64,000 nucleotides of DNA, from positions 61,854,788-61,918,787 of the forward strand of contig CM120640.1 of the NCBI GenBank assembly GCA_051362555.1, written 5' to 3'. Shown here one piece after another: positions 1 to 64,000 of this stretch. This stretch comes from Lingula anatina (taxonomy: Eukaryota > Animalia > Brachiopoda). Each line of letters starts with the position of its first letter. Position 1 is the first letter of the stretch. The position numbers and the translations under genes are program-made. A model generated the notes under the pieces. It was not told where the DNA came from. It saw nothing but the letters and a program-made list of their open reading frames with translations, and made no database searches.

Positions 1-3000
1 GAAACATCACTAGCTCCAGAGAAAAGTGTAGCACTAGCACCAGCAAAATTTATACACTGTTCCCGAGAGTAACACTGGTTATTATGCCAATAAGGTTTAT
101 CAGATGGACAAGCACATCCAGCACGACACGCCAAATTACACGGTACGCCAATGTTTGGTTGCAAGCATGTGGATGAGCATTGAGAAGCACACTGCTGGTA
201 GATCTGTCCGCCAGTGCATGCTGTAAAGCAACAAAGCAGAAGCAAATTAGCTCAGCCACGAAAGAAATGTGCAAAAGAAGCCACTTGTCAATAGAATTGT
301 CGCTAATGTGAAGTATAGCTCCTGCACAAGCAAACAAATGTACAATGCATTGGGAAATAACATTGGCATTTATGCTAGTATGTTTTACCAGTGTAATGTC
401 AGTAAGTGACAGCATGCAGGGAGTGTTTGGTAGAGTAACTTGAGTTGATTGACATGCTCTTATGGTATTTATACAACTGCGCATAATATAAACGAGGGAA
501 AAGGCCGCTAGATATTGCATGAGGTAGAAATAGAAATGAAGAGACCGGCACAGGTAACAACTGGACAGTAGTTAAATAAATAATATGAAAGATAATATCT
601 GAGTTGTATTTGCTACCTGGCTTAACATCAGCAAAAACATCGTCACACCAGTAAAACAATGACTGAATATACATACACTGAGTTGAAACACCACTAGCTC
701 CAGAGAAAAGCGTGGCACTGGCACCAGCAAAATTGATACACTGTTCCCGAGAGTGACATTGGTTATTATGCCAATAAGGTTTATCAGATGGACAAGCACA
801 TCCAGCACGACACGCCAAATTACACGGTACGCCAATGTTTGGTTGCAAGCATGTGGATGAGCATTGAGAAGCACACTGCTGGTAGATCTGTCCGCCAGTG
901 CAAGCTGTAAAGCAACAAAGCAGAAGCAAATTAGCTCAGCCACGAAAGAAATGTGCAAAAGAAGCCACTTGTCAATAGAACTGTCGCTAATGTGAAGTAT
1001 AGCTCCTGCACAAGCGAACAAATGTACAATGCATTGGGAAATAACATTGGCAGTTATGCTAGTATGTTTTACCAGTGTAATGTTAGTAAGTGACAGTATG
1101 CAGTGAATAAGAGCAGGGAGTGTTTGGTAGAGTAACTTGAGTTGGTTGATATGCTCTTATGGTATTTATACAACAGCGCATAATATAAACGAGGGAGAAG
1201 GCCGCTAGAGGTTGCATGAGGTAGAAATAGAAATGAAGAGACCGGCACAGGTAACAACTGGACAGTAGTTAAATAAATAATATGAAAGATAATATCTGAG
1301 TTGTATTTGCTACCTCGCTTAACATCAGCAACAGCATCGTCACACCAGAAAAACAATGAATGAATATACATACACTGAGTTGAAACACCACCAGCTCCTG
1401 AGAAAAGTGCAGCACTGGCACCAGCAAAATTGATACACTGTTCCCGAGAGTAACATTGGTTATTATGCCAGTAAGGATTATCAGATGGACAAGCACATCC
1501 AGCACGACACGCCCGATTACACGGTACGCCAATGTTTGGTTGCAAGCATGTGGATGAGCATTGAGAAGCACACTGCTGGTAGGTCTGTCCGCCAGTGCAT
1601 GCTGTAATGCAACAAAGCAAAAGCGAATAACCTCAGACATAGAAAAATGCGCGAATTAATAGAATTGTCGCTATTGTAAAGTACAGCTCCTGCACAAGCG
1701 AAAAAGTACAATGGATTGGCAAATAACATTGGCAGTTATGCTAGTATGTTTTACCGGTAATACACTGAATGAATATACATACACTGAGTTGAAACACCAC
1801 TAGCTCCAGAGAAAAGCGTGACACTGGCACCAGCAAAATTGATACACTGTTCCTGAGAGTAACATTGGTTATTATGCCAATAAGGTTTATCAGATGGACA
1901 AGCGCATCCAGCTCGGCATTGTCTTGTACACGGTACGCCAATGTTTGGTTGGTAGCATGTGGATGAGCATTGAGAAGCACACTGCTGGTAGGTCTGTCCG
2001 CCAGTGCAAGCTGTAATGCAACAAAGCAAAAGCGAATAACCTCAGACATAGAAAAATGCGCGAGAAATAACCATTTCTTCATTAATTGTAATGACATGCA
2101 AGCATTATACCATCAGCCACCTCGTTTGTTATAAAGTGGGAATCAACCACATTCATTTTGTGCCAATACAAGAAGCACCCCGAAGATTTTTTATGCACAG
2201 CATGGTCCAAACAACCGAATGGAAACTAACGCTATATACATGTTGGGCGCCTACTCACTTTGGCTGACGCCACTTCCACTAAGGGTCATCTGGCACTCCA
2301 TCAGGGTTCGACATTGTCCGTTGTGGAGGTAAGGCTTTGTGCTGGGACATTCACATCCAGATCGACATGGGGCAAAATTGTTGCAGTTTTGGTTCTGGTT
2401 AATGTTGTAACACGTTTTCACATCGCACTTTGACAGGCACTGCGTGAACGTTTGACCTCCGCTGCAAACTATTTGAAAAAGAAACAAAAAGGGAATCGGT
2501 GTTAATCAAATATCAACATCGCTTTCATGCATGGATTAGACAACTCGCAGTAGAGCCTATTTCATTTCCCACATATTGTTTAAATCATTCTTCTATAGTA
2601 ACATTCTATCCTATCTCCAATCACCGTCAGAGACTTACACTGTCCTGCAGTTGCGCCAGCATTGGATCCAGTGCTGGTAATACCTCCATTTATTTGACTG
2701 CATTGGTTCAGGTCGTGACACTGGCCATTGTGTAGGTAGGGCCTGTGAGACGGACAGACACAGCCTGGTTGACAGGGGAGGTTATTACACGTGCGTCTGA
2801 GTTCGAAACATGTATTTGGACATTGAGATGCGCAGTTACTGTAAATTTGTCCACCGGAACATGCTGAAAAAGCCAATTACCAGAGTCAGTTATGGTGATC
2901 AAGTGGATGGTTAGCACGTTTTGCTTTTCACTTTTTTTCATTTTTCACGCATATATAGGCATATACTCGGAGGATTGCAGTTCTCCTTATCCTTGTTGAA

Positions 3001-5540
3001 TTCTGAGAAATTGCCATGGGCGTCCGCAGAGGGGGGTCAATGGGGTCACTCCCCCCCCCCCCCCCCCCCCGGAATTTTGGCGGGCACATTAATTGCGGGT
3101 ACCCAGCCAATCATTATCTCCCACTTCGATGACTTTGACCCCCCCCCCCCGGAAAATTTTCTGCTGACGCCCATGGAAATTGCCAGTTTAAGACTAAGTA
3201 CTGTTGATATTACACGATGAAATGATAGGGAATATCAACAGAACTTAGCCAGTTTAAGACTAAGTACTGTTCATATTCCCTATAATTTCATCATGTAATT
3301 GTTAGTGAAATCATTGATAAAATAATTTGATCAAAGCTGATGAGATACATTTAAATACATCTTGCAAAAAATGTTATGAAGTCTGATACATTTAGAACAA
3401 ATTTGGTGCTATAGCACTTCAAAAAAATTTGAATTCCTCATTTTTGCATGGTCTAAGAAATGATCTGAGTGCTTAGAGAAGAAAAATAGATGTCTGTTAT
3501 TCCAATTGGTATATTTTTTGTTAATTCTACAATATGCAAAAAGCACGCAGCCAGTAGATCTGACTACCAATGCAAGATGGAAGTCGACGACAGGCAATTC
3601 ATCAGGGGAAACCCGTAAACGAGATGTAGGGTGCAGGTTTCGCCTGGAAGTCTATCAGACTATGCATGTATCTACAATGTCGATAAGTTGCAATTTAGTA
3701 AACGCTAATTGCAAAATATAGAATTGTTTCATTGTTGGCGAATCATTGTACATGTACATATGAATTAGTTGATGACTGACAAACCTAAAAGAAAAAGTAT
3801 AGACAGATAATTTAACAAAGCAACAACAAACACACACACACACACGCATGTCACGTTTTCATTTCATTGGTGTGACAAGCTGAACAAGGTTACAAAACTG
3901 ATATACATACACTGGGTTGAACCGCCACTAACGCCACCTGCGTTTGAAACACCACTAGCTCCAGAGAAAAGCGTAGCACTGGCACCAGCAAAATTGATAC
4001 ACTGAGTCTGAGAGTAACATTGGTTATTATGCCAATACGGTTTATCAGCGGGACAAGCGCATCCAGCACGACACGCCCGATTACACGGTACGCCAATGTT
4101 TGGTTGCAAGCATGTAGATGAACACTGAGAAGCACACTGCTGGTAGGTCTGGCCACCAGTGCAAGCTGTAACGCAACGAAGCAGAAAAGAATAAGCTCAG
4201 TCACAGAACATTACAAGCAATGAAACAAATTGAAAATATTAAAACAAAATAAAAAACACTTTAGATTTTCGTTTCATTGGTATGGAACCCGCACAAGATT
4301 ACAAAACTGATATACATACACTGGGTGGAATCACCACTAACACCACCTGTGTTTGAAACACCACTGGCACCAGAGAAAAGCGTAACACTGGCACCAGCAA
4401 AGCTGATACACTGTTCCTGAGAGTAACATTGGTTATTATGCCGGTAAGGTTTATCAGATGGACAAGCGCAACCAGCGCGACACGCCCTATTACACGGTAC
4501 GCCAATATTTGGTTGGTAGCATGTAGATGTGCATTGAGAAGCACACTGCTGGTAGGTCTGTCCGCCAGTGCAAGCTGTAACGCAACAAAGCAAAAGTAAA
4601 TAACTTCAGCTATAGACCATTTTACAACCAATGCTACGAATCAAAAAGTTTTATGAATCACAACAGAGCAGACCAGTGAATTTGTAAATCGCAAGTAATA
4701 TAAAAATAAACCAGTAATTAACGTTATCAGTAGGAAAACACACTGACCCAAAATGTTCAGTGCACAAGCAAAAGAAGACTGGGAAAGATGAAAAGTAACG
4801 TGGGATTTATCAGCGTCACTAGTCAACGAAATAGGAAACGAGATTTTGTCAGAGAGCATGTTCATATATGGCACTCTGTTCATTACCTCGATTAATGGAT
4901 ATGCACTGTGAATCAAAACAATTTTAGCCCATCAATCCCATAAAACAAGCTGAAAAGCACTTTTACAAACAATGAAGCCATGCCGTATTGCAATTAACAT
5001 TTTTATAAGAAAAAATACATACTCTGGCTAGAACCGCCACTAACGCCACCTGTGTTTGAAACACCACTGGCACCAGAGAAAAGCGCAGCACTGGCACCAG
5101 CAAAATTGATACACTGTATCTGAGAGTAACATTGGTTATTATGCCAATAAGGTTTATCAGATGGACAGGCGCATCCAGCGCGACACGCCAAATTACACGG
5201 TACACCTATGTTTGGTTGGTAGCATGTAGATGAGCATTGAGAAGCACACTGCTGGTAGATCTGTCCACCAGTGCACGCTGTAACGCAAAAAAAGCAGAAG
5301 CGAATAAGCTCAGTCATAGAAAACAGTGCAACCAATGCTACATATTGAAAATTTTCTTGACTCACATAATGCATCCATACGATTAATGTTAAACACTTAA
5401 ATAACTCTAAAAATCATTTAAAATTACTTATGCTAGTGGAAATGAAACACAAGCACTAGCAAAGGAGGTGCAGTGAATTTGCAAATAGCATTGGTTATTA
5501 TTTCAATAAACCAGTGATAAAAATAATCAGTAAGTAGATA

Positions 5541-5581
<41 letters not shown>

Positions 5582-8500
5582 CAGTGCATTAGCAAAATAG
5601 ATTGGGAAAGATGAAAAGTAATGTGTGATTTATCAGCCTCACTAGTCAACGAAATAGGAAACAGATTCTGTCGGAGGGCATGAAAATACAAGGAGCTCCC
5701 TTTAACGTCCATTAATTGATATTCATTATGAATCAAAACAAGTTTTAGCCCATCAATCCCATAAAACAAGCTGAAAAGCACTTTTACAAACAACGAAGCC
5801 TTGTCGTAATGCAATAAACATTTTTATAAGAAGATATACATACTCTGGCTAGCACCGCCACTAACGCCACCTGTGTTTGAAACACCACTGGCACCAGAGA
5901 AAAGCGAAGCACTGGCACCAGCGAAGCTGATACACTGTTCCTGAGAGTAACATTGGTTATTATGCCAATATGGTTTATCAGATGGACAGGCGCATCCAGC
6001 GCGACACGCCAAATTACATGGTAAGCCTATGTTTGGTTGGTAGCATGTGGATGAGCATTGAGAAGCACACTGCTGGTAGGTCTGTCCGCCAGTGCAAGCT
6101 GTAACGCAACAAAGCAGAAACAAATAAGCTCAGTCATAGAATACAGTGGAACCAATGCTACAAATTGAAAAAAATTTGACTCACATAATACATCTATGAG
6201 ATTAATGTTAAATACTTATATAACTCTAAAAACACCACCAAAAACTTACTGGTGCTAGTAAAAATGAAACACTACAGGTGCAGATAGAGGCCGTCTTCTG
6301 GGTCTTCCGGAAGACGATCCCAATTTTTCAAGTTTACATTGAAGGTCATCTAATTTGTCTGTCGTTAGACGGTCAAAATGGAGGACGGATGAACAAAGGT
6401 AATTTGGAAGATTGTCAGAAAATATCTCTCGATCCGCCCCTGCACTAGTATTAGCAAAGGGTGTACAGTGAATTTGCAAATGGTATTGGTTATTCTTTCA
6501 ATAAACCAGTGATAAAAATAATGAGTAGGAAGACATAAAACCAAAATATTCAGTGCACTAGCCTTAGCCCATCAATCTCATAAAACAAGCCGAAAAGCAC
6601 TTTTACAAACAATAAAGCCTTGTTGTAATACATACTCTGGCTAGAACCGCCACTAACGCCACCTGTGTTTGAAACACCACTGGCACCAGAGAAAAGCGCA
6701 GCACTGGCACCAGCGAAGCTAATACACTGTTCCTGAGAGTAACATTGGTTATTATGCCAATAAGGTTTATCAGATGGACAAGCGCATCCAGTGCGACACG
6801 CCAAATTACACGGTACGCCAATGTTTGGTTGGTAGCATGTAGATGAGCATTGAGAAGCACACTGCTGGTAGGTCTGTCCGCCAGTGCAAGCTGTAACGCA
6901 ACAAAGCAGAAACAAATAAGCTCAACAATAGAACATTTTGCAACAATGCTACAAATTTAATAGATTTTTGAATTACATAATGCATTTTATTCCATTAATG
7001 CTAAACAATTATATAACTAAAACGTCACTTAAACCTTACTGGTGCTAGTGAAAATAGAACACTGGCGCCAGTAAAGGAAGCACAGTGAATTCCAAAGTGC
7101 ATTGATTATTATTCTTATAAATCAGTGACAAACATCAATTGGAGGAAATCATACATCCGAAATGTTCAGTGCATTTACAAAGTAGACTGGGAAAGATAAA
7201 AAGTAATGTTGCTAAATTATTCAGCCTCGCTAGTCAACGAAAAGGGAAACAAATGTTGCTGGAGAGCAATTAATGGAAATACGTTGTGAATCACAAAAGA
7301 TTTTAGCCCACCAATCCCATAAAACAAGCTGAAAATCACTTTTACAAACAATGAAGCCATGCCGTAATGCAATTAACATTTTTAACAAGTTATACATACA
7401 CTGGCTAGAACCGCCACTAACACCACCTGTGTTTGAAACATCTCTGGCACCAGAGAAAAGCGTAGCACTGGCACCAGCAAAGGTGATACACTGTATCTGA
7501 GAGTAACATTGGTTATTATGCCAATAAGGTTTATCAGATGGACATGCGCATCCAGCGCGACAAGCCAGATTACACGGTACGCCAATATTTGGTTGGTAGC
7601 ATGTAGATGAGCACTGAGAAGCACACTGCTGGTAGGTTTGTCCGCCAGTGCAAGCTGTAACGCAACAAAGCAGAAGCAAATAAGCTCAGCCATAGAACAT
7701 TTTGCAACCAATGCTACAAATTTAAAAGATTTTTGAATCACATAATGCATCTTTACAATTAATTAATTAATGTTAAACAATTATTTAACTCTAAAAACAT
7801 CAGTCAAAACGTATAGGTGCTAGTGGAAATAAAGTATTGGCACCGGTAAAGAAGCGCAGTTAATCTGCACATCGCATTGCCTATCATTCCAATTAAAGAT
7901 TGATTAATTTTATCAGTGGGAAAACACATTAACCCAAAATGTTCAGTGCGCTAGCAAAACAGACTGGGTAAGATTTTAGTTTTTATCAATGTCAATACTC
8001 AACGAAATAGAAAACAGATTTTGCTGGAGAACATGTAAATATAAATACACGGCGCTCTCTTCAACGGATGATGGAAATGCATTGTGAATCAAAACAAGTT
8101 TTATCCCATCATCCCATAAAACAAGCCGAAAAGCACTTTTACAAACAATGAAGCTATGCTGTAATGCATTTAACTTTTTTTATAAGAAGATATACATACT
8201 CTGACTAGAACCGCCACTAACGCCACCTGTGTTTGAAACTCCAGTGGCTCCAGAGAAAAGCGACGCACTGGCACCAGCAAAATTGATACACTGAGTCTGA
8301 GAGTAACATTGGTTATTATGCCGATAAGGTTTATCAGATGGACAAGCACATCCTGCGCGGCACGGCAAAGTACACGGTACGCCAATGTTTGGTTGGAAGC
8401 ATGTAGATGAGCATTGAGAAGCACACTGCTGGTAGGTCTGTCCGCCAGTGCAAGCTGTTACACAATAAAGTGAAAGCTCAGCCATAGAATATTGTTTAAT

Positions 8501-11500
8501 AAAAGCTACAGGTTAAACAAACTTTTTTTATCCCAGAGTGCAGCCGTGTGATTACTGATAAACATTTATATATCTCTGAACACATCACCACAGTAAATGT
8601 CAGCAGACAAGTACATAAACATTCAGAAGTGTAACAGTGGCACCAACGAAGGAAGCATACAGAATTTGCAAGAATGGTTAATATGGCACCAAGCTTTTCA
8701 GTTTAACATACAAGCTTACTTACTTTGGCTGCCGCCACTACCACTAAGGGTCATCTGGCACTCCATCAGGGTTCGGCATTGTCCGTTGTGGAGGTAAGGC
8801 TTTGTGCTGGGACATTCACATCCAGACCGACATGGGGCGAAATTGTTGCAGTTTTGGTTCTGGTTAATGTTGTAACACGTTTTCACATCGCACTTTGACA
8901 GGCACTGCGTGAAAGTTTGCCCTCCGCTGCAAACTATTTGAAAAGGAAACAAAAAAGTAAATAATCGGAGACTTAGAATTGCGCCCTTCTCTTGTACAGT
9001 TGAGCACAATTCCCAATCTTCACAGCATATGCCTGTGTAAATCTCAAAGAAAATATCAATATTCTTTTTGTCAAATAGACATTTGAGACACATTTTGAAA
9101 CTTTCTATATAAATGATACGATAACTGAAAAAGTAATGATTGTCAACACGGTATGTTTGGAAACTGTATCTGCAAGGGGTATTGGTTTTTAATAGCAGTT
9201 AGCCTCATCAGTATGGCAAACACAAGTATGGCAAGTGGAAGTAATCACTCAATACATAAAGGGAAGTTTGGCGGCTGAGTCAAACGTTGTTTTATGGCGA
9301 CGGATTGTAACCTAGTTCCGACGGGATACACACTAAACTGAAACACTACTAACGCCACCTGTATTTGAAACTCCACTGGCTCCAGCGAAAAGCGTAGCAC
9401 TGGCACCAGCAAAATTGATACACTGAGTCTGGGAGTAACATTGGTTATTATGCCAATATGGTTTATCAGATGGGCAAGCGCATCCAGCGCGACACGCCAA
9501 ATTGCACGGTACACCAATGTTTGGTTGGTAGCATGTAGATGAGCATTGAGAAGCACACTGCTGGTAGGTCTGTCCGCCAGTGCATGCTGTAACGTAAATA
9601 AGCAGAATAAATAAGCTCAGCAACAGGACACATAATATTGTGCAATTAAAAAGCAGGTAAAAATACACTGATGAATCCCAAAGTGCATCTGAATCTATAG
9701 GTTAAATGTTAAACGTTATTTTGTTTACAATAAAAGACACACTCTGACTTGACAATTAACAAGTGGTAAAAAAAGGTGAAGCACTTCCATAAGCAAGGGT
9801 GGCGGAGTGGTGGAGTTGAAAGGCACATTGGTTATTTTGACAGTAAGCTTTATCAGTTAATCGAGGGACAGATATAAATATATACCCTGGGTTGAACCAC
9901 CACTAATGCCACCTGTGTTTGAAGCTCCGCTAGATCCAGAGAAAAGTGTAGCACTGGCACCAGCAAAGTTTATACACTGTATCTGAGAGTAACATTGGTT
10001 ATTATGCCAATAAGGTTTATCAGATGGACAAGCGCATCCAGCACGACACGCCAAATTACACGGTACGCCAATGTTTGGTTGGTAGCATGTGGATGAGCAT
10101 TGAGAAGCACACTGCTGGTAGGTCTGTCCACCAGTGCAAGCTGTAAAACAACAAAGCAGAAGCGAGATAAGCTCAGCAACAGAACAGCAAGCCAAATAGG
10201 CCCGAGAAATTCATTGGTGCCTCCATATGGCTTATGTAATACATTTTTTTGTAAAAATGTAAGACACTCTGACTTGAGTAAAAGTTAGGGGAAAATGAAG
10301 CACTATAGCACCACCAAAAGAAGCACACGGAATCGGTTAATATAACAGTGAACTTATTATATGTAAAACAGAATGGATATACTTACACTGTGATGAATCA
10401 CCACTAACACCACCTGTATTTGAAACTCCACTGGCCCCAGAGAAAAGCGTAGCACTAGCACCGGCAAAGGTGATACACTGTATCTGAGAGTAACATTGGT
10501 TATTATGCCAATATGGTTTATCAGATGGACAAGCACATCCAGCACGACACGCCCTATTACACGGCACGCCAATGTTTGGTTGGTAGCATGTAGATGAACA
10601 TTGAGAAGCACACTGCTGGTAAGTCTGTCCACCAGTGCAAGCTGTAACGCAACGAAGCAAAAGCAAATAAGCTCAAAAAGCTCAAAAATTGAATTGTGTT
10701 TAATCAGAGCTGCTTTTCAAACTATTAAGTGCCATCGAGCAACTGCATGATTTATGGTAAATATAATATATATATCTCTGAATTTTATTCAATTTCAGGA
10801 CCATTGACTTGAAAAACACTGACCACAGCAGAGGAAGCACACTGAATCTCAAAGGCACATTGGTTATTATGTCAGTAAGCTTTATCAATTAAGCGAGGAA
10901 CAGATATAAATATATACCCTGGGTTGAACCACCACTAACGCCACCTGTGTTTGAAGCTCCGCTAGATCCAGAGAAAAGTGTAGCACTTGCTCCCGCGAAG
11001 TTTATACATTGTATCTGAGAGTAACATTGGTTATTATGCCAATATGGTTTATCAGATGGACAAGCACATCCAGCACGACATGCCAAATTACACGGTACGC
11101 CAATGTTTGGCTGGAAGCATGTAGATGAACACTGAGAAGCACACTGCTGGTAGGTCTGTCCACCAGTGCAAGCTGTAACGCAACAAAGCAGAAGCGAATA
11201 AGCTCAGCCATTGGTAAAATAACTGAAGAAACAACTGTATTGAACGACAATACATGTACGTGGCATTTTGACGTATTTCACAAAAATAGAGACGCGCAGT
11301 TTTACAGTATTTTGATGAAATTTCAGTGATAACATCAGCAGTAAATGGTTTAAAAGAATGAAGCAATAGTTAAAGTTAAATGAAAGCATCTAAAGCAAAA
11401 AAAGTAAAAATAAAAAGCGAGTTCTCTCACATACAGAAACTAAAATGTTACATGTAAAATTAAGGGACATATCACGCGTTTCTTCTAAATAGAAATTCTT

Positions 11501-14500
11501 TGCAAAGGTTTGCAAATGGCCTTAGATCCAATATCAAAGATTCTTTCTGCCCCATGTTGCACACGTTAAAGCTGTTGGTGGTCTAACATTGCCTTGGAAT
11601 AGTTTAACTTATCCTGTCCTTATTCAATTTCAAACATTTGTACATCACGAAAACTTTATTATTATAGGCATACTTCGACTAATTACTTTAGTGATAGAAA
11701 AAAGTGAAACACTGCCTCAAGCATAGGATGAACATTGCATGTGCAAATACATTGGTTGTCATGGTGGTAATTATGTCTTATCAGTGGGAGTACATATTTG
11801 GTCAAAAACTCGATGGTACCAGCACATTATGTTAGTATAATATGGATGCACATTCAGAGCACGAAGTATATCTGACCTCCAGCGCAAACTTTAATGTAAA
11901 GTTGTGTTATTCATCAGGGTCACTCGTCAAAACGAAGGAGACCTAGAAGATAGGCCAGGCAGTACTTGATGCCTGTACATGATGCCATTGCCAACATCTA
12001 TTAACAGCAATTTCATAAGTTTAAGGAAAATAAAAGGAATATAATTTTTTGAGAACTAACACCCAACATATCGTAAAAAAAAGTTGGATTTCCGTTCCAT
12101 TTGGTTTTAAAAGAACAAGATATACATACACTGGGTTGAAACGCCACCTGTGTTTGACACTCCACTGGCTCCAGAGAAAAGTGTGGCACTGGCACGGGCA
12201 AAGGTGATACATTGTATCTGAGAGTAACATTGGTTATTATGCCAATAAGGTTTATCAGCGGGACAAGCACATCCAGCGCGGCATGGCAAAGTGCACGGCA
12301 CGCCAATATTGGGTTGGTAGCATGTAGATGAGCACTGAGAAGCACACTGCTGGTAGGTCTGTCCGCCAGTACATGCTGTAACGGAAGAAAATAAAAATAT
12401 AGATAAAACAACGAAAGAAATTGCAGAGATGAATGACATCATATGCTCCTCTTGATGTTTACATGAAGATAGTAAGCAATGTAAAACGGTTAATGATCTT
12501 TGATTAGACACGCTGTCAATGACACCCTAGTTAAAAACGTCTAAAAGCACCGGACAAAAAGACTAACATCAACGAAATAATACTGTAATCATTACAAACG
12601 TATTAAGTATTTCTAATCATTGCACGGAATGTTTTGTTAAAATTCTGTGTTCTTTACTTTAAACTTGAAAGGATAAGTATCGTTAACTCATCTAAGCTGA
12701 ATGTACACTGAGTGTCTAGTAAATTATATTAAAAAAGAATGAATTAAGTTAACACGCTGTTACAGTTCTAGAACAAAAGGGTATAAATTAATCATCAGTA
12801 ATAATTGACAGTATAGAAGTTGGGTTACACCATTTAGATATTTTCAAGCAGCATGCTTTCTGACAAGGATATAGATGACAGATAGCAAATAGATAAAAAA
12901 AAAAAAAAGAAGAAGATAGTAACACCACAGTTATGTCTACCTGTAAAGCAAACCATATTGTGAAACTGGTGATCATATATATTAATTCACATGTTAGAAA
13001 GTAATATTGCATATCTTATCTATAAATGAGGAAAATGATACTATGATGAACCTGCAATTGTACGGCACTGAAAATGCCATAGCTTGCATGGCAATTATGA
13101 TTCAACGCCCTTGCATCCAGTAATCCCAACTCATGCATTTCTTGTCGCCTTTAAATGTATATTGACGGCTAGGGAGACACGGTGGGTGTTGTTATCGCTG
13201 TTGTCGTTTCTTGCCCTTTAAAACTCCACCGCTGTAGCATAGACAGGACTTCGTGTACCCTGTATATTGTGTCACGTCACTGATGTTAATGGGCTCACTT
13301 CCAGCATTAAAACGCTACGTAATCTAACTGGTTATGATTGTATTAGAAAAAGGCATAAGCACACTTCTGCCTGATATTCAACCAATTTTCAAAGAGGTAT
13401 GAAAAAATACATTTAGATTGTTGGGAGTATTTGTTATGGGAAACAGAGTTTATAAATTATCTCAAAATGCGAAAGTTGATTTGCAATGCCTCCAAAACAT
13501 TTTCTTTGGTTGTCGATAAGTGTGTTAATAGGTATCCAAACATCAAAATAAACTCAGAAGTTAGTTAAATCATCTGCTGAATGTTGTACATAAATATCTC
13601 AAAGCTATTCAAACAGTTTTGTTATTGTCAGGCTGAGAGATGTCAGTAAGCACACGATAAACTGAGCTTACAATAGATGATTCCTCCCGTACCAGAAGAA
13701 CCAGGCGGACACTGATTTTCCTGGATGCACAATCCGTTATAATTGATAGGACGATACGATGGACACTGACAGCGTGGGACGCATGATTGAGTGCATCGAG
13801 GTCGCCTGTTTATGCAGGTGGCAGTGCAGGCAGACCCACACTGCGTGTATATCTGTCCTCCACTGCAAACTAAAACACGCTATTTGTATTTAACACCAGT
13901 AATGTTACAAATAACAGTTATAACATACAGATTGGTACAACAAAGACTGGTTCAGATACAATAGTGGTTGGCAGTGGAAATGCATGGAATTGTGTTTTTT
14001 TTTTTTAAGTATACGTGTATATGGTGGCTCTATATTTAATCCGTTTGTTCGTTAGATTTACTATTGGAAACGTAAAACCGAAATTAACATCTTCTGTTAA
14101 TTTTGCCCTATAAAAGTAAAGTTCATCAAAATATGTCTAAATTAGACTAAGATGACTAAATTAAAAATATTTCACCCTCAATTCATTTTCTTATCTCCCC
14201 TTCGCCAGATTTAGATGAGTTTCACCAGACTAAAGTTAAACCGATGTTACAAGTCCCATGCCTGTTAACTGAAGTGACATTCATTTTCTACAAGTTAACA
14301 ACCACCTCAATCGTCTGCATCCATTGGTGCTGCATCTATGAATAATTATCTCCATTTAGCTTTCCCTGTAAAATGCGTTTTCCATAAAACGAAAGTGTTC
14401 CACGACGGAATAGATAAACCATGTATTATAAAATTGTTCGCTTACATACGGAGCCGCTGTTCTGAGATGAGATCCAACGGATTCTACTTGGACACTGGTA

Positions 14501-17500
14501 CGCTTGGATGCATTGTCCATTGTGAATTACTGGTTTACTGAATGGACACTGACATCGCTGTACACACTGGCCCGTGCACTTGGGGTTTGGGTTGTCACAC
14601 GTGCGAATGCATGCTGACCCACAGCGAGTGAACACCTGACCACCGCTACATCCTACACCAAGTAAATGCAATCATCTGACAACTAGATTAATACACACAT
14701 TCTACACTACACAAGTCTGTGCAAGGTGGAGCAGTGTCTAATTGTATCTTATACCTTCCCGTGTAACAGCCGTTAATTGGTATCGGAGAACAATATTGGG
14801 GGGTTTAAGACGGTCTGTTATTATCAATCTGTGCAACTGTCTAGGAAATAGTATTTTTCCTGTTAAATCTCCGTTTTAATTACCACTTTCACCTTGCATA
14901 GACCTTCATGTCGATATGGAATATAGAGTCCAATTTTGGGGAAAAAAAACAAGGAAAACTTTAAAACAAAATACTGCTCTTCAGGGATTCACCGTTTTTG
15001 TACATCGTTCATTCAAAAATGGATTGTCCATTTTTGAATGAACAATGCGCAGTAAGAGTAAAAGGGGACAGTGTATGGGATTTCCGTGTTTTTAATAACT
15101 TTGGGATAGCCTTTAGTAATGTCCAAATGCACACTGGATCGTTCTTTGGAAAGAATACTAATATCCTGTTGCATAAAATAAAATACAAGAAAAACGACAT
15201 CGTTTATATGGCTTAACCAAAATGGAGGAGTGGTCCTACATGTAAAATTAGTACAAATATTATTGTATTTCGTCGCACCAAAATCCCGTTAACAGTCCCT
15301 ATAAAATTATTTGCGACCCATTTATATTCAACATACTTATTATATCAGAAACATTCAGGGTTTAAAGCATACTATCAAGATTCTAACTAAATTCTCTAAA
15401 TACTCTGTATTGTTCTTTTACCTTTTTAAAGGTATTAGTTAAAACTTCTATTCAAATATAATTCTAGTAGATTCTATTCATATACTCTACTAATAGTTTG
15501 GTTTAGATCTAGTACTGTATGACTACCAATGAGATCATACAAAACTAAGCATGCACCCAAATCTTATTCCTACACATTTTACTTTATATTTGGTTTTGAG
15601 GGGTTTTGACTATTTTCTAGATTTTCAGGGTAAAGATAAGCATCTGTCATTGGGCAATTCCCTGTGGTTGTAGGTATTTTTCAAAAGCACATTTAATCTA
15701 GGTCTATTTCTTAGAGCTTACTTGTAGGGGCGACCCCGGATATCCCGACATCGGTTCCACCTGGGCATTGGTTTTCTTCAACACACTGCCCATTGTGATA
15801 TATCGGTTTTGAAAATGGGCATTGACATCTTGCAACGCACTGCTGAGTGCAAGCAATATTCCTTCTCTGGCAGGTGCGGGTGCATGCTGAGCCACACTGC
15901 GTAAAAAACTGACCGCCGCTACAAGCTGAAGTAAGCAGGCGAATTCACAGACTAGCTTATAAGGGAAATGTTTTTGTGTCTTTGACTACACGTGTCGAGT
16001 GCATAAGCACTAAGTCAACTGAATTCATCTAGAGACACATGCTCAATTTTTTTCCATTTTTCCTATTGAAAATTAGATGACCCTTCATTTTATGGAGAAG
16101 CTAATAATGAACATAAAGGAAATAGTGCTTTTAATTAGCAGACATGTTCCATATCTAACTATACAAGGTTGATGTTTTTGCACGCACGATTGCAAGAAGA
16201 ACCACATATTACAAATACTTGACATGATGTTAATTGACAAAGTATATACGGGGCTGTGTACTTATACATGTGAGGGACACAAGCGGTAACAACATTTGTA
16301 CAAATGAATTACACATACAGGTTTCGTGTGCACATAAACGTTGGGCAATGCAACGTGTAGGTAATCAACTATGCCACGACATCGCAAACATTCAAATGAC
16401 AACTTACTTGTACCTGACCCAAGATTGTTTATACCGGTGTTAATTCCAGCGATGCTTCCAGAGGAACCTGATGGACATTGTGAAATGCACCTGTTTTGGT
16501 GAAAGAATGGGGCGGAAGGTGGACACTGACAACGTGCTACACACTGATTTCCCAGGTTGCACTGCTGGCTGGGAGAGGCACATGTTCTGGTACATGGCGA
16601 ACCACAGGTTGTATAAATTTGTCCCCCGGAACATGCTAAAAAGATAGAATTAAGATTTGACATAGTGGTTGATAGTTTGAGAGTATTTATGAGAAACAAG
16701 GTTTATTTTGCAATGAAAACGGGCTGTTATCTTCAAGGATAAGTCAATATATCTTGATTTATCAAACATTTGCATAGCCACAATGGTGTGAAGTTGTTCT
16801 TACTCTGACTGCCACTTATCAGCTGCCCGTTTGCATTATAAATTTGTCCTTGTTGACCGATACCTAAAAGCAAGTAGGTAAGGCCATGTTAAAGATATCA
16901 AATGTATCAATATTTTTCTTTTCATGCAGATACAAATACCCAAAATATAGTATTCCAATCGAGCATTATTATCTTGAAAATTATCATTTCATTTTGAATT
17001 ATAGCATTGTAGTTTGACTGTCACATTATATCTAGTTTGATTTATTATTAAAAGAACAGATAAAATTACCTATGTATCGTAATTTGAGCCCTACTGTTAA
17101 AATGGACACATACGTACCTTGATTTTGTCCAAACTGATTCTGGTTGAATTGATTCTGGTTCAATTGGTTCTGCTGGACTGAGCCTAGACGGCGTTGTTGG
17201 TTCAGTTGGAGTGCAACTAACATTGGAAAATGATCAGTTTACCAAAAAATGTGCAGAAATTCATTTTTTGGGTTATTCCTACAGATTACCTTGATCATTA
17301 ATTAAATTTTGAAGTGATAAGACCTCAAACAAATCTACGTTACAGGTCATTCATATTCACTGCCTGTGGCTTTTTTGTGATGTCGAGTTGGGCCCTGTGC
17401 AAATGTCGATTCTATAAATTCTACTAGAAAAACGCTGATCAACATTTTCACAAAGGAAACTTAGCATGCGACGAATGCACCATTCAATTAATGACTATAT

Positions 17501-20500
17501 AAATTGATATCCATGCACATTAAAAGCAACAAGAAGTATTTAAACAACTTTCTTCACTAATTTTAACTAACGTTGTCTGGTCTGTTCCCCGCATTGAGCT
17601 CCACGCCCATCTGAAAGAAGGGTACATGGGTTCTGTGTATCTGGATATTGGTCGCTTCTCCCGTACTCATCAGGTACACCCGTACCACGGGCACAGGACA
17701 TGGCGTTGGCCTCAAATCCTCCCAAACCGAGAGTACATTTGTAAAATATGCAGTGGTTGTTCATATCCTTGACAAATTGTCCGTCGCGCTGACATGGTGC
17801 CGCTGAATTCAGAAAAAAGAGCAAGTAAGTGGTGATCAGCATTATTGGTTTTCAAGGAAAATTGCAACATAATTTTTATTATGTCACTTTGGTATTAGGC
17901 CATCTATTTTATGCATCTGCCAAAATTTAAGTTAAATTAGTATACAACCGAGATAATGGCTTTTTAAATTTGAATGAAAGAATTAAACGAAAAACAATTA
18001 GCATAATGATTTTTCTCCGTATTTCTTTTCAAATTCAATCTTTATAAAGTTCATATTGTAAATCGCGTATAATGATCTTTTAGCTAATAAAAACACATCT
18101 CCTGTCAACTTGCTTTGCATTTGGAGACATGAAAAGACATTCCCGTTATACAAAACCCTACCCATCTTCTAAATTCCAACTCTTTTCATTATATTTTTTG
18201 ATAGTTGAGATATTGTTAACGTGACAAAACACGCCACGAGTTCAAGAAAAAAGAAATAAAACTAAACATTTTCAACGTCAACAGCATTACTTTGACCTTG
18301 ACGAAACCGCAAGTTCAGGTTTAATAGTCAATCAGCAACTTTTCCCGGGGGAAAACGCATAAGGATGTTATTAAATAAATCTAGGGATGTTATTAAATAA
18401 ATTTTATATTGTCCTTGTGTATTGGCACCAATTCTGTACACATTATGAATACGTCAGGATCATTTCCATAAGAACAACGATAAGGAGAAGACGATTCAAA
18501 ATTATAGGCTTTTGTTAATAGAGAATAGTGACTCATTAAAAGAAGGTGGTCAATTAAGGGGGTCTGCAGGTAAGAATTATTTGGCTACAGACACGATGTG
18601 ACACTACCACATTTTCTGTCACGCAAATGATATTTTAATCAAGCATTTGAGTGTTATCTCGTATATTCGATCAAATTTCTCACACAGGAGGAAGGGCACA
18701 ATGAAAATATGCGTTCATAACAAACTTGGTGCGTATGAAAAATATGTTGCGTATTTTCTAATTAAATAAATATAGTAATTATTTGCACCCATTATGAAAA
18801 TATTCTGATGAGGTAAACTGCAGCATTGATTGAAGTCTGTATGCAAAATAAAAGCCCTCCATGGAAAATTTGGATCTTAGCAATATGACCTTTTTATATC
18901 TGCAGAAGAATGGGCCTTATAAAACCTGGGTGGGAATTTATCGTTTGCAAGCAATCAGATTAAGAAGAAGAATAATAAGATTAAATCTACCACATTTGAA
19001 CTGCTCGATTGTGCCTTAGGTAATACAAGTAGAAGACTTCAGTCCAAAATTGTATTTGTCCTTTTTTTATCCCCTTGATATTATTACATGACAGTGTTGC
19101 GCGTTCTACCTTGCCTATTATTTGCACTTCTTTTGCCAAATACGGTGATGTTCTCAGTTAGAGAAAACTGGACCCCCCCCCCCCCCCACACACACACACA
19201 CACACACCTCGGAAGACAATTTCTGAACTTTTAAACGCTTACGGTGATAAGGTATCTTATTACAACTGGAAAAACGTCTTTAAGCGCAATTGTACGTGAT
19301 TAATCACAGCAGGGAAGGAAAACATGTTAATAAATCTTCTGAACAGGGATTAAATACAATGCATTTTCATTTTCTTTGAAATTTTCAAGAAATATCTGCA
19401 TGTCGTGACAGAAGTGTTCAAGTGGGTGTGTCGAAAAGTAAGCAACTATCCAAACATATTGACTTATCAATTAGATATCAACATGTCCATTGTGCCGGGT
19501 ATTGACCGACTGGTGGATCAGTGTGTAGGTAAGCCGCTTTGTATAAGTTACTCTCATATCAGTTTCCATCTTATATATAACAAGCTGGCCAATTACATTG
19601 CCATTAGAAAAGATTGAAAACGATAACCAGCGATATGGACACCGCGACTCCACGGAAATGGTCTTCAATTTTGTAACCACTTAACAGACGCTGTATAAAC
19701 TACGTGAGTGCCACTTAACATTTTCCGTTAACAAGGCCTAATTTATTGCATCGTTGCATGTACCGCTATGATGCCTATCTAACACCGGTATTTAACTGGA
19801 AGTCGTAATTTCCTTGCACATTTTAATCGTTGCTAATAGCTCATTGAGATCTGTTAAAGTATTATACATTAAAGGAAAAATATATTATATTATATTATAT
19901 TATATTATATTATATTATATTATATTATGATTTGTAAAGCTATGCTTTGTCACAAGCGAGAAATAGAGAATGAAACAATTACAGAGTTATTCAAATACAC
20001 TTTGGAACAGCTTTTTGAGGAAATCAGTGGAGATGGGGATATGCTCCTGGCGTATCAAATATTAAATTAAACCTAGTATGATATGTGAAAAACCAAAAGT
20101 ACATACAAAAGACAAATGAGATTTTTTTAGATGTTTTGATATTAGATATGATATTAAATATACTATGTATATTCAATTCTCTTGACAAAAATAACAATTT
20201 ATTTGATATCAACAATCAAACCACCTCTGACCGATTCACTTGTGACATGCTTTGGTTAAGTACCATATGGTTTATGAAGGCTTAATTACTATGAAAATGG
20301 TCACGATCTGACCGCGGTCACACGCTCGAGTTTATCAAGGTAGTCTCGTGCCAATTCGGAGCCAGTTAACATCCTATCAGTTTAACGCTTCGACACGGTC
20401 GGGCGATAATTATAAACCTCGACGGGGAAATAGCTGGTAAATCTTGAAACAAGCAGTTTGGTAACAGACCTGGTAAATAAACCAGTTAGACTTGCAAATA

Positions 20501-21466
20501 CTGCCTAACTGACTGGTGATTCAACTGAGAATCCAAACCGGGTTCTAAATAGGCATTATTTCATATATACTTACATCTCAAGCTTGTCGGTTGAAAGACA
20601 TCGGCAATGTTTGCGTGGAAAGGTGAATGGATTTTTTTACTTCTTTTGTGCAATTATAAATACATCATAATCCTTCCATTTTAACTTATTGTGAACTGTA
20701 GAATTCTGGCATAGAATAGAATGAAAAACGCGGTTGTGTCCCTAAAAGAAAGTTCCCAACACGTCATATAAGGATATTGCGACTTGTAGAGTTTCAAAGA
20801 AGTTAAAACTCGCGTGTTCTTTCTTTCAGCTTCATATAGAGAATATTGTGTTTAACAATAATAAGATGTAACAATAATACATCCAGACCAAATAAATCTT
20901 GTCAATCTTGAATCAAATTTTTAAAACGATCTTTTCAGAAGGCAAGGGTATTTAGTTTTCCATCAAAGAACAGTGAAGCAGTTTCAGATGGTGTATCAAA
21001 CAACTATTGACATATTACAGCCAAATCAAATAATTCCTTGGCGAGAAATACTACATGAAGCGTATTTTAATCGCGCTTTCGATATTTTTATTTAATTATT
21101 TTATTTACATGTTTATTTATTTATTTTATTTTATTTTTTGCTCATACTTAGCTTCACGTGAAGAACCATAATTTCGCTCTTTCCTACCGAAATACATTTT
21201 CATCTATTGTCATCATTTATCTCTGTATGCATAATCTCGAATCTCTGTTGTGTTTTCATTTCAGCTACTTACGTAGTTTAATTGTTTAAAACAGATCATT
21301 TACGCCTTACCATTGTTCTTAAACACAGTTTCATTTTAATATAAAAAAGACTGGTCTTTCTTCCTGGCTCGCATCATACAAGTCAGATGGTTCTACTGTA
21401 GATATTAGTTTTTGAAAAGAAATCTTACCTGGTGCCGGCTGCATGGAGATCCCACTCATCCCCTGC

Positions 21467-21501
<35 letters not shown>

Positions 21502-21648
21502 CAATCTTTGTTGCTGCAACAACAGCTGCTGCTGCTGTTGTACAGTAAGAAAGTTCTGTTGTTGTTGTGTAAACGGATTCTGTTGTGCAACAGTCCTGTG
21601 CACAACACAACTTAACAGCAACAGGAGGGAGAGTTTCATCTGACCCAT
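1..21648 (-). CDS. Gene A: secreted polyQ / CBM14-like / multi-TIL serine-protease-inhibitor-like protein (3' end outside window)
   Basis: Exons: 21648-21429 (signal peptide + polyQ), 17802-17572 (6-Cys domain), 17216-17118 (N/Q-rich), then TIL exons 16635-16408, 15925-15722, 14652-14446, 13869-13672, 12375-12130, 11172-10918, 10641-10387, 10140-9886, 9586-9332 (has a stop), 8933-8724, 8454-8200, 7654-7400, 6890-6636, 6098-5844, 5277-5023, 4574-4320, 4165-3911, 2863-2639, 2468-2259, 2010-1783, 1601-1374, 904-677, 220-<1. All internal exons have AG/GT boundaries, lengths divisible by 3 and phase 1. Each TIL exon has the 10-Cys TIL pattern. Confidence 0.88.
3015..3175. mobile_element. hAT-type MITE in a gene A intron
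   Basis: TIRs CATGGGCGTC(C/A)GCAGA and a perfect 8-bp target-site duplication GAAATTGC (3007-3014 and 3176-3183), with internal poly-C runs. Confidence 0.9.
3182..3299. repeat. Short foldback with internal direct repeat
   Basis: 3209-3241 is nearly the reverse complement of 3267-3299. GCCAGTTTAAGACTAAGTACTGTT occurs at 3182 and 3248. Confidence 0.65.
6275..6442. mobile_element. MITE inserted in one intron copy of the TIL array
   Basis: Imperfect TIRs CAGGTGCAGATAGAG / CTCGATCCGCCCCTG, flanked by CACTA on both sides. It is absent from the homologous introns near 5445 and 7060. Confidence 0.7.
17572..17802 (-). CDS. Gene A exon 2: divergent chitin-binding type-2 (CBM14)-like 6-Cys domain
   Basis: PCQRDGQFVKDMNNHCIFYKC...SCARGTGVP...NPC...QC. 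The C-x3-G-x-F-x2-D-x4-C-x-F-Y-x-C...C-x2-GT pattern resembles peritrophin-A. It is homologous to gene B exon 4. Confidence 0.65.
19881..19928. repeat. (TATAT)n microsatellite
   Basis: Read directly from the sequence. Confidence 0.9.
21429..21648 (-). CDS. Gene A exon 1: signal peptide and polyglutamine tract
   Basis: Translates as MGQMKLSLLLLLSCVVHRTVA-QQNPFTQQQQNFLTVQQQQQLLLQQQRLQQQQQQQQQQQQQGMSGISMQPAP. It ends at G|gtaag and has a TATA box upstream. Confidence 0.88.
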
Positions 21649-26438: not shown

Positions 26439-29400
26439 TCAATAATTTGTTGGTTTCTTGCAGTCGCTATCCCTGATGCATTCACCGTTATCGCTCAGTA
26501 CGGGTCTGTCTGCCGGGCACTCACAGCGGGGGACACACTGCAGTGTGCAGAACAGAGCTTCATCACTGCAGGTCCTGGTGCAAGCAGAACCACATTCATT
26601 GAAGACTTGGCCCCCGGAACATTCTGAATTGGAAAAAAAACGTGCCCGTGGAAAATTGATATCCAATTAAAAAAGGCATTAACTGAAAGGCGCTCACCAC
26701 TTTCTCTATCAAACATAAATGTGATAACTGTTAATGAGATTTATCCATTCCCTTTTCCTGTCATATCTCGTCTTTAATGTGTAAAATATACATGCTGAAA
26801 TATACCAACTACTATATGACGTTCTAGTGACTCAAGACAGACAACACACAATTTTTGTATCTTAAGCGCTTCCTTGAACCTAAAATATTACCATCTAGGG
26901 ATATATGTTTCAAATTAGATGTGTCTCTTACTTGGTATTGGGCACTGAGACTTCGTGATACACTGTCCGTTGTGGAAGACTGGTTTATCAGGTGGGCATT
27001 CACATTTTTCCACACATTGCAATGTACACGGCCTAGGAGACTCGAAGACTGTCTGGCACGTTGTCTCGCATGCAGATCCGCACCTATTGAAGACCTGTCC
27101 ACCCGTGCATCCTAATTGTGATAAAAAGTATTAAGTGGCATTCATAAAGAAAATTGCCAGCTCTGTTAAATGAAAATTACAGTGGTATTAAGTTTGATAT
27201 CAGTTGTTTATTCGAAGAAACTGTTATCGTACCATTTTATTACGTGCATATTGAGATTGCTACTTGAGGGTTGTACGGTGTCAGTTATCGTATTTTGAAA
27301 ATTTGTGTAAGATATTGTAAATTTTAAGACCTTGATATAAATTTCTTATTATCCTCAAAATAAGAGATTTAAATCTCTATTGTCCAAACTAGCAAAATGT
27401 TTACAGAATCCAACCTTGTGGCGTTACAGGGCACTGGTTCAAAGGCACACATTTCCCGTTATCCAAAATGGGCGCGTCCTGGGGGCACTCACACTTTTGG
27501 ACACACTGGCGCGTGCAGGCGGGGTTGGGTTCTTGGCAGGTTCTCTCACACACAGACCCACATTCCTTAAACACCTGGCCAGGTATAGGACACGCTGAAT
27601 ACAAACGTTGAGAATAATTACAGGGATCAAAAGCTGTGCATTGATTGAGGTTTACATCATTTTCAATTGTATTTTAAAACCAAATACTGTCTATTGTTTT
27701 CTTTATGTTTCATTTATGATATCATTATTATGATGTAAGCAATGTCACACACGTAACAAGATTAAGGTTAAACAGCGCAGATTACATTTGTTTTAAGTCT
27801 TAACATAAAAATATAATTTTTATCTTCTACAAAAAAGCCTTCGTTCACACAAAGATATAACCCCACATATCAAAATCCATATACCATTCTAATATTGCCA
27901 ATAATCTAAGGGTTACATTCATTATAAATGTGTCAACCTTTATGGCTTTCCTTACAATATGAATCCGTAGGTACATCTACTAAGTAGCAGAGATGCATGT
28001 AGAATGATCAAATGTTAACTTGACTTGACACGTTCGACAAATGAGCCTTTCACACGGTAAAATACAGATATGGCAAACGAAGAGGGGCTTGACAAAGCGG
28101 TTAAAAAGTATACACCTCTTTTCGGTTGGCATAAGAAAAATATCGAGGGAAATTTAGAGCGGTATTACTCGTATTAAATTACGTACTTTTCCTAGGACAG
28201 GCATCATTACTGATACAGTTGCCTTCGTGCAGCAGCGTCCCAGAGGGGCATGCACAGCGGCCGACGCACACCGTTGCACAAATAGGGTTAGGTTCTTCAC
28301 AGGTGGGATCACAGGGGGATGCACACTCGGAAAACACTCGGCCACCGGTGCAGGTTGAATCTATACATGTATAGGTGGTTATACTTCATTTTATTGGCAC
28401 TGATATTTATTTACCTATGAAAAGTTACTGTATGAAACCACACTTCTATGATGAAACATATATACACATATATTTGGAAGGTTCGATTGTCTTTCCCAGT
28501 CTATTTCTTGGTCTGGGTGCAACTGCAAGCATGAGAAAGTTGAACCTGAACTAATTTTGGATGTCCATGGAATTCATTTAAAGGACTAAATCACCTACCT
28601 GGCGGTGGGGGTGCCGTTCGTGCGTCAGGGCACTCGGAAGCTTTGAGGCAGTTTCCGTTGCGTAGAAGTGGTCTGTCGGGAGGACAGTGACATCCAGGGA
28701 CGCACTGAAGAGTGCAGACAATATTGCCCATGTTCTCACACGTGGCGGTGCAGGCAGAACCGCACTCGTTGTACACCTGGCCACCTCTGCAGGACTCTAA
28801 ACCCACATAACAGCACATTAGTATTATGCTTTAAAGTACAACAGTGTATGATAAAGACTTTTGAAAAAAAAGCTATTTTTAGGCAACATGAAGATCAAAT
28901 TCCAGTTTAGACCCAATCGTAGGTTCTAGTAACTAACGTTGAATAAAGCCAAAAGCGCATGGTTTTTTTAAATTCCAGCATAACAAAGGACATAAAATTG
29001 AGAAGCAGTTGTTTCTCTTTTCAACAAAGCGTTGAGGCTTAAAAGACAACATATTTTTTCTTCTTGGCTGCATTATTTGATACGCATGACATTGCCTCAG
29101 CTCACCTCGGACAGGCACGCATACAGGTGGTGGCTGTGGACAGGGGGCAGTAACACAGAATATTGTGTCTTGGACGCAGACCGTTCCACTTGGGCAGTTT
29201 AGATCCTGACATGATAAACAGTAACAAGTTAGAATAACAAATAAGTTAAAAAGTTTTTCCCCACACGTAAGGATCAAAATGCATTGATTGTTATTTTCCG
29301 TTATTTCATTTATCCTTATTATATCATCTACTTATCTATCTCTTTTCACTACACCATATATGTATATTTATTTATTCATTTTTATCTGATTTAGTCTCTC

Positions 29401-48790: not shown

Positions 48791-49063
48791 TGTGAAACAA
48801 ATTTGATTCCTTTATATGCCACTAGAGGGCCAATTTCAAGACAGGAAAAAAATATATATAAGTTATTTAATTAAACTAATAGTTTTAAGTCTATCATTAA
48901 AGTTAAAATTTCAATATATTATATTTTTTGCATTTCCTTAAATGATTTAAGGTTGTTAACATTCCAACAATCAATCAAGTTACAGTGCCAAGCTTTTATT
49001 GGTCCCATAGAGGGAGCAGGTGCTATGTGACGTCAAAAGCCAAAATGGCTGAAAAAATTGAGT
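48791..49063. promoter_or_regulatory. Bidirectional promoter shared by MKS1 and NCoR
   Basis: The divergent start codons are 273 bp apart. The interval contains CTCF-like CCACTAGAGGGC (48819-48830), ATTGG (48998-49002), CRE TGACGTCA (49028-49035) and YY1-like CAAAATGGC (49041-49049). Confidence 0.7.

Positions 49064-64000
<14,937 letters not shown>

Follow-up and report, generated by a model that had tools for sequence, protein, structure and literature searches.

An array of near-identical TIL domain exons in Lingula anatina with a two-state leucine/arginine switch at the predicted reactive site

A stretch of 64,000 nucleotides from the brachiopod Lingula anatina (GenBank assembly GCA_051362555.1, contig CM120640.1, positions 61,854,788 to 61,918,787; hereafter the window) carries an apparently unannotated gene, here called gene B, in which 16 near-identical exons each encode a trypsin inhibitor-like (TIL) domain. 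The residue predicted to occupy the reactive-site position P1 is Leu in 11 of these copies and Arg in the other five, written with five different codons. Our data suggest that P1 is a two-state Leu/Arg switch rather than a site of open diversification. We consider it somewhat probable that gene B encodes a secreted, many-headed TIL inhibitor, with Leu heads directed against chymotrypsin/elastase-type and Arg heads against trypsin-type proteases, which would guard the shell matrix or secretions of the animal.

A six-frame scan and a codon table recovered on the minus strand all 16 exons that the initial annotation had reported, at the same starts. Its reading of the loop between the fifth and sixth cysteines was also correct (NLA in nine copies, NRA in four, TLP in two and TRQ in one), as were the codons that it named for the second loop residue; by our count these are TTG in ten copies, CTG and AGA in one each, AGG and CGG in two each. 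Each array exon consists of 55 TIL codons plus a Gly/Ser-rich linker and is flanked on both sides by phase 1 introns with AG/GT ends; any two copies differ by 2-24 of 165 nucleotides and by 0-8 of 55 amino acids. The assignment to the TIL family was borne out by Pfam TIL (PF01826), which gave 34.3 bits against a curated cut-off of 24.5 for the exon starting at 11172, the sole array copy scanned; the divergent exons X1, Y and 16635 also exceed the cut-off. All ten cysteines are invariant in all 16 copies. Sequence matches include BSTI and the bee chymotrypsin inhibitor; the CTMQC loop of the latter lines up with CNLAC, codon 29 of the array falling on its Met (1ccv). By comparison with the Ascaris and bee inhibitors, we take the second loop residue to be the putative P1. 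P1 determines the specificity of TIL inhibitors, and Arg or Lys at this position gives trypsin inhibition to silkworm TIL proteins, according to PMC10004685. The array domains are predicted to adopt the TIL fold by a structure model (predicted local distance difference test, pLDDT, 74.8) for which Foldseek retrieved 1ccv, 1hx2 and 8hwu (template modelling score 0.63-0.70, probability 0.99-1.0, no E-value below 0.001), with 1eai also among the fold matches.

The loop had been described as the most variable part of the exons. This is true of it as a three-codon unit, but P1 is not the most variable single residue. The nucleotide diversity of codons 28-30 (2.48) is the highest of any three consecutive codons, the next non-overlapping triple reaching 2.08, and comparison with random triples of non-Cys codons gave p = 0.002-0.06 in eight test variants. 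P1 itself (codon 29; nucleotide diversity 1.16) ranks third in amino-acid diversity among the 45 non-Cys core codons, with 0.46, below codon 53 (Ile in six copies, Thr in three and Glu in seven; amino-acid diversity 0.68, nucleotide diversity 1.52, also with multi-base differences) and codon 19 (Tyr, Phe or Leu; amino-acid diversity 0.57). Codon 53 (for example at 11014-11012) lies close to Cys10, the expected partner of Cys4, which adjoins the variable codon 19; the TIL disulfide pattern is given as 1-7, 2-6, 3-5, 4-10 and 8-9 in PMC10004685. Codon 53 possibly belongs to a second contact surface.

Diversifying selection at P1 was the central proposal of the initial annotation, and our results uphold it in part. 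Codon models were self-written (neither PAML nor HyPhy was used), with branch lengths scaled from nucleotide trees. The ratio of non-synonymous to synonymous differences (pN/pS) is 0.66 in the loop and 0.91 at P1 alone, against 0.15 over the remaining core; the scaffold is under purifying selection and the loop is released from it. The comparison of models M1a and M2a on a loop-free tree was significant (p = 0.003 and 0.007), and codon 29 had an M2a posterior of 0.96-1.0 in all four fits. In the site-wise dN/dS (omega) test on the full tree, P1 was the sole clear site above 1 (omega about 4.3, p = 0.0013, 16 variable codons), only codon 64 reaching p = 0.045 besides it among the 16 sites. This result weakens under a null calibrated for conversion with a neutral P1, where P1 as pre-specified site gave p = 0.009 (n = 217) and 0.039 (n = 205). 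Five codons for only two residues, the minor one in at least four copies, appeared in 0-1.6% of neutral simulations (18 settings of 250), by a statistic chosen post hoc. Moreover, the Arg copies lie dispersed in the copy tree: as a clade they were rejected by the approximately unbiased test (p-AU = 1.3e-4, loop removed), in a tree where 10 of 13 inner branches are weak. Because the five Arg copies do not form a clade, Arg either arose repeatedly or travelled in short tracts. Taken as a whole, the evidence for selection at P1 is suggestive, and what it points to is a two-state switch.

The scaffold itself had been regarded as homogenised, which the introns contradict. Intron divergence was 0.174 against an exon synonymous divergence (pS) of 0.157 in 15 alignable pairs (r = 0.77), and 0.151 against 0.177 in 12 pairs (r = 0.76). 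Because exon pS equals and tracks intron divergence, the similarity of the scaffold reflects tandem duplication and purifying selection, not exon-specific homogenisation. The array copies have exchanged sequence tracts: of 561 informative site pairs, 273 conflict with each other (0.487; minimum number of recombination events, Rm, 16). None of 750 simulations without conversion attained this proportion, while up to 30% of those with frequent short tracts did. However, a neighbour-clustering test gave no significant evidence of recombination (p = 0.08-0.29) and tells against the exchange that our reading employs. The clearest case of exchange, and the exception to the non-homogenised pattern, is the exon starting at 2010, where the loop tract departs from the majority (Table 1; Fisher p = 4e-10, the tract having been picked after viewing) with Cys31 and Arg32 kept. 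Its TRQ loop also occurs in the neighbouring gene A. A search of the window revealed no donor; the best match elsewhere in it had 6 of 21 mismatches.

Gene A is a tandem paralog of gene B, listed in RefSeq under the name 'zonadhesin', which was given by similarity. It matches XP_013385642 with 93-100% identity in 11 pieces and encodes two Kunitz domains and five TIL domains with loops TLQ, ATV, TRQ, TLQ and TLQ; there are three isoforms, and isoform X3 is without one TIL exon. The two genes are alike in being adjacent and on the same strand and in having a homologous N-terminal domain, a run of TIL domains and a skippable TIL exon. They differ in that the five TIL domains of gene A are old and divergent, that they are accompanied by the Kunitz domains and that gene A has no recent array. 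PMC13425148 (supplement S1, S19) counts gene A among the shell matrix proteins of Lingula on the strength of two peptides, and both are encoded within the window.

According to the scenario that we favour, tandem duplication would have multiplied the array exons and their introns as units. Loop variants may then have been carried from copy to copy in short gene-conversion tracts, and Leu-to-Arg changes, of which there were one or a few, would have spread and been retained. Selection likely retains the Leu/Arg switch because it would let the protein block both protease classes, each domain presumably binding its serine protease in a substrate-like manner via the Cys5-Cys6 loop, as is known for the family. 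By analogy with gene A, the protein may act in the chitinous shell matrix or in secretions, shielding them from proteolysis.

Several results weigh against this reading. The multi-base changes that had been thought to cluster at P1 resolve into a chain of single steps, TTG-CTG-CGG-AGG-AGA, one amino-acid change and three silent changes connecting all P1 codons; therefore, multi-base differences among the copies are alone no proof of selection. The M1a/M2a comparison was not significant on the full tree including the loop (p = 0.10 and 0.12), and the family-wise p under the conversion null, for the best of 14 variable sites, was about 0.16. On leave-out trees codon 53 outscored P1 (omega 7.2), which shows that this design inflates, and its selection tests were set aside. 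The amount of diversity at P1 fits an unconstrained codon (neutral simulations reach it in 4-12%, p = 0.04-0.12, and reach the diversity of the loop in 21-35%). This is what would be expected if the loop were unconstrained, and an early single Leu-to-Arg change had drifted through the array as copies were duplicated and converted, dual specificity not being selected for; the pN/pS of neither P1 nor the loop exceeds 1, and codons 53 and 19 are equally variable. We nevertheless hold such drift to be unlikely, though far from negligible, since none of the residues one step away from TTG (Phe, Ser, Trp, Met, Val) occurs in the 16 copies, neutral simulations seldom yield the two-residue pattern and P1 was significant as a pre-specified site. 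Moreover, the exon at 2010 regained TRQ, a loop also of gene A and papilin, and Thr and Gln, which flank P1 in TRQ, are the residues that most often stand beside it in 202 relatives. Inhibition as such must also be weighed. TIL domains are structural as well, as in von Willebrand factor (VWF), mucins and zonadhesin, and a Pro following P1, as in TLP, usually hinders protease binding. For the array, fold and profile matches to TIL domains of VWF and mucins are as good as those to inhibitors; the confidence of the model is lowest (pLDDT 56) at residues 21-30, the loop included; and Asn is found at P2 in only 2 of the 202 relatives. The repeats could thus be part of a chitin-anchored scaffold in which Leu and Arg alter surface charge or binding and not protease specificity, and with this would agree the Gln or Gly at the P1 position of several upstream TIL exons, the long Gly/Ser linkers, the poly-Gln and the chitin-binding-like domain, and the presence of the paralog in the shell matrix. 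Such a purely structural role seems improbable to us, as the variation sits on the inhibitor loop and involves two classical P1 residues, the paralog has two Kunitz domains, and no VWD or C8 exons, as in VWD-C8-TIL assemblies, were seen among the Cys-rich frames of the window, beyond which the 3' end of gene B lies.

Whether one chain combines both kinds of head, as had been claimed, is a separate question, and the RNA does not bear the claim out. The gene B transcript is real: three of six RNA runs cover its exons, at a low depth of 2-14 reads (runs X12, X13 and X15 have reads on repeats only, without exon coverage, and were not used as evidence). The joints in run X18 are 17572-17216, 17118-16635, 16407-14651 (8 reads), 12130-9586 (4), 9359 to an X exon (7), 8724-2863 (11), 2639-2468 (11) and an X exon to a 12375-like exon (3), and they bypass ten array exons and exon 15925. 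Summed depth over the array corresponds to about 2-8 exons and not 16 in all three expressing runs (a rough value, intron repeats included), and in all three it is near zero over 3583-4776, including the bins on Arg exons 4574 and 4165. This scarcity of RNA on Arg exons also speaks against a mixed inhibitor. However, the RNA animals show at least 12 differences from the window in about 954 unique exon bases (40 of 97 rows), compared with nine differences in 5560 bases for DNA run X3; Lingula populations differ by 0.0759 according to PMC13425148. Because the RNA animals diverge from the window, the RNA fits exon skipping or a shorter haplotype alike. We put at slightly short of even the chance that most array exons are skipped or haplotype-limited, so that a typical chain has a few Leu heads and the 16-copy mix is rare. 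Besides the joints and the depth, the isoform of gene A without one TIL exon favours this, whereas the low depth, the possibility that the RNA animals carry another haplotype, and the open frames and like splice sites of all the exons in the window argue against it. It is quite unlikely, in our estimate, that the array is a spliced cassette library, in which splicing would pick Leu or Arg heads and 15-base conversion tracts would swap loops, giving a combinatorial anti-protease repertoire for shell or mantle secretions.

The exons of gene B are listed in Table 1; the gene extends past the left end of the window. Its likely first exon lies outside the RNA-covered stretch and its join to the next exon is presumed; the signal-peptide-like segment that it carries, recognised by eye, would fit a secreted product. 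The Cys-containing domain of the following exon is 41% identical to the N-terminal domain of gene A over 66 amino acids and resembles CBM_14, a chitin-binding domain, with an Atlas score of 0.87, which together with the lack of a Pfam match we take as a lead only. Three divergent TIL exons (X1, Y and X2), absent from the initial annotation, sit within the array and four others upstream. X1 and X2 are near-identical, with a longer loop (NNFAP), Y is related to them (NNLP), and these three are the best RNA-covered exons. A candidate 60-base phase 1 exon, Gln/Gly-rich, with boundaries set by eye, was seen at 16804-16863 on the minus strand; the RNA joint 17118-16635 bypasses it. In exon 9586 the donor at the customary end of an array exon has decayed and an in-frame TAG, likewise absent from the initial annotation, is present (9332-9359, minus strand). 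This exon was ruled out as a pseudo-exon, since RNA splices from the cryptic upstream donor at 9359 and leaves the TAG in the intron; all array copies carry some form of this donor.

Unique introns were recovered along the array in contigs of DNA runs X2 and X3. Because these two samples hold them, we conclude that the array is real DNA, although run X2 may be the source of the assembly; an assembly artefact is ruled out by these introns and by the distances between the copies, with their synonymous excess. The array introns also contain repeated elements. A very high-copy interspersed repeat at 6275-6445 has a contig depth of 6,500-74,000 and reads in all six RNA runs; a terminal inverted repeat was looked for in it and none was found. 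More repeated elements, with raised DNA depth and many joints, lie at about 419-540, 1076-1300 and 9254-9327. No protein of gene B was retrieved by a search with exon 11172 (0 of 98 candidates passing), with the N-terminal domain among longer proteins (0 of 9), by HMMER (99 matches, none above 49% identity) or with gene A as query (none among the best 120 of 149 matches listed). Such negatives are weak evidence, and gene B is apparently unannotated in L. anatina.

Table 1. Exons of gene B and related features, in positions of the window
Feature	Position	Strand	Loop and P1 codon	Basis or remark
Gene B, likely first exon	21429..21648	-		Translation: ATG, hydrophobic signal-peptide-like stretch, poly-Gln
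Gene B, Cys-containing domain exon	17572..17802	-		No Pfam match; spliced in RNA X18
Gene B, Gln/Asn-rich linker exon	17118..17216	-		RNA joints 17572-17216, 17118-16635
Divergent TIL exon	16408..16635	-	NLGNQ	Pfam TIL 33 bits; RNA joints
Divergent TIL exon	15725..15925	-	TQQ	3' end by eye; bypassed by X18 joint 16407-14651, depth zero
Divergent TIL exon	14449..14652	-	TGQ	Sequence and RNA X18; 3' end by eye
Divergent TIL exon	13672..13869	-	TQS	RNA depth; 3' end by eye
Array exon 1	12130..12375	-	TLP, TTG	Codon table; RNA joint 12130-9586
Array exon 2	10918..11172	-	NLA, TTG	Codon table; Pfam TIL
Array exon 3	10387..10641	-	NRA, AGG at 10555-10553	Codon table
Array exon 4	9886..10140	-	NLA, TTG	Codon table
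Array exon 5, short form	9359..9586	-	NLA, TTG	Upstream donor CAG/GTGGCG (slash, exon end); RNA joint at 9359, 7 reads
Divergent TIL exon X1	8724..8933	-	NNFAP	Pfam TIL 27.8 bits; RNA joint 8724-2863
Array exon 6	8200..8454	-	TLP, TTG	Codon table
Array exon 7	7400..7654	-	NLA, CTG	Codon table
Array exon 8	6636..6890	-	NLA, TTG	Codon table
Array exon 9	5844..6098	-	NLA, TTG	Codon table
Array exon 10	5023..5277	-	NLA, TTG	Codon table
Array exon 11	4320..4574	-	NRA, AGG at 4488-4486	Codon table
Array exon 12	3911..4165	-	NRA, CGG at 4079-4077	Codon table
Divergent TIL exon Y	2639..2863	-	NNLP	Pfam TIL 32.8 bits; RNA joints
Divergent TIL exon X2 (near-copy of X1)	2259..2468	-		Sequence; RNA joints
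Array exon 13	1783..2010	-	TRQ, AGA	Codon table
Loop tract of exon 2010, codons 28-32	1913..1927	-		10/15 bases off majority against 6/201 elsewhere
Array exon 14	1374..1601	-	NRA, CGG at 1515-1513	Codon table
Array exon 15	677..904	-	NLA, TTG	Codon table
Array exon 16, truncated by window end	1..220	-	NLA, TTG	Codon table
Gene A, RefSeq 'zonadhesin' (L. anatina)	26442..36515	-		XP_013385642/50/61; tandem paralog of gene B

Elsewhere in the window, a nuclear receptor co-repressor-like gene, presumably NCoR, occupies about 50200-63600 on the plus strand, with Pfam GPS2-interacting and Myb/SANT domains. Minus-strand exons at about 45600-50400 may belong to an MKS1 gene, which they resemble; Pfam gave no match for the three pieces tried.

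That the reactive site varies while the scaffold is conserved is textbook knowledge on protease inhibitors. The principle is known from plant and insect inhibitors, and gene B is a further example of it. No publication on gene B, or on selection acting at P1 of arrayed TIL domains, was found in the literature searched, which was mainly open-access. The value of gene B is that of a clean test case, with natural domains that differ at one loop residue only, in an apparently unannotated gene beside a shell matrix protein of a brachiopod with a chitin-phosphate shell. Exon 2010 allows testing whether selection shields a functional site from conversion inside one gene, and the array whether splicing or copy number tunes the mix of inhibitors.

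Among known systems, the TIL inhibitors of MEROPS family I8 (C/E-1, 1eai; AMCI, 1ccv; BSTI, 1hx2; BmSPI38/39) are the ones that share with gene B the ten-Cys TIL spacing, the CxxxC loop and the fold (TIL background from bioRxiv 10.1101/2024.10.04.616518). These are mostly single domains with measured activity, whereas gene B, known from sequence, has at least 16 near-identical heads and seven divergent TIL exons. The Pot II (Pin-II) inhibitors, as described in PMC2259423, combine trypsin and chymotrypsin heads in tandem; P1 is under positive and the Cys scaffold under purifying selection, and the repeats evolve in concert via unequal crossing-over and conversion. However, they have another fold and belong to another kingdom, and their precursors are cut into units; in gene B every head has an exon to itself and P1 has two states only. 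In animals, pacifastin precursors are multi-domain inhibitors with exon duplication, splice variants and variable P1-P1' residues (PMC2689174), and differ from gene B in their fold, in their far more diverged domains and in their dibasic cleavage sites.

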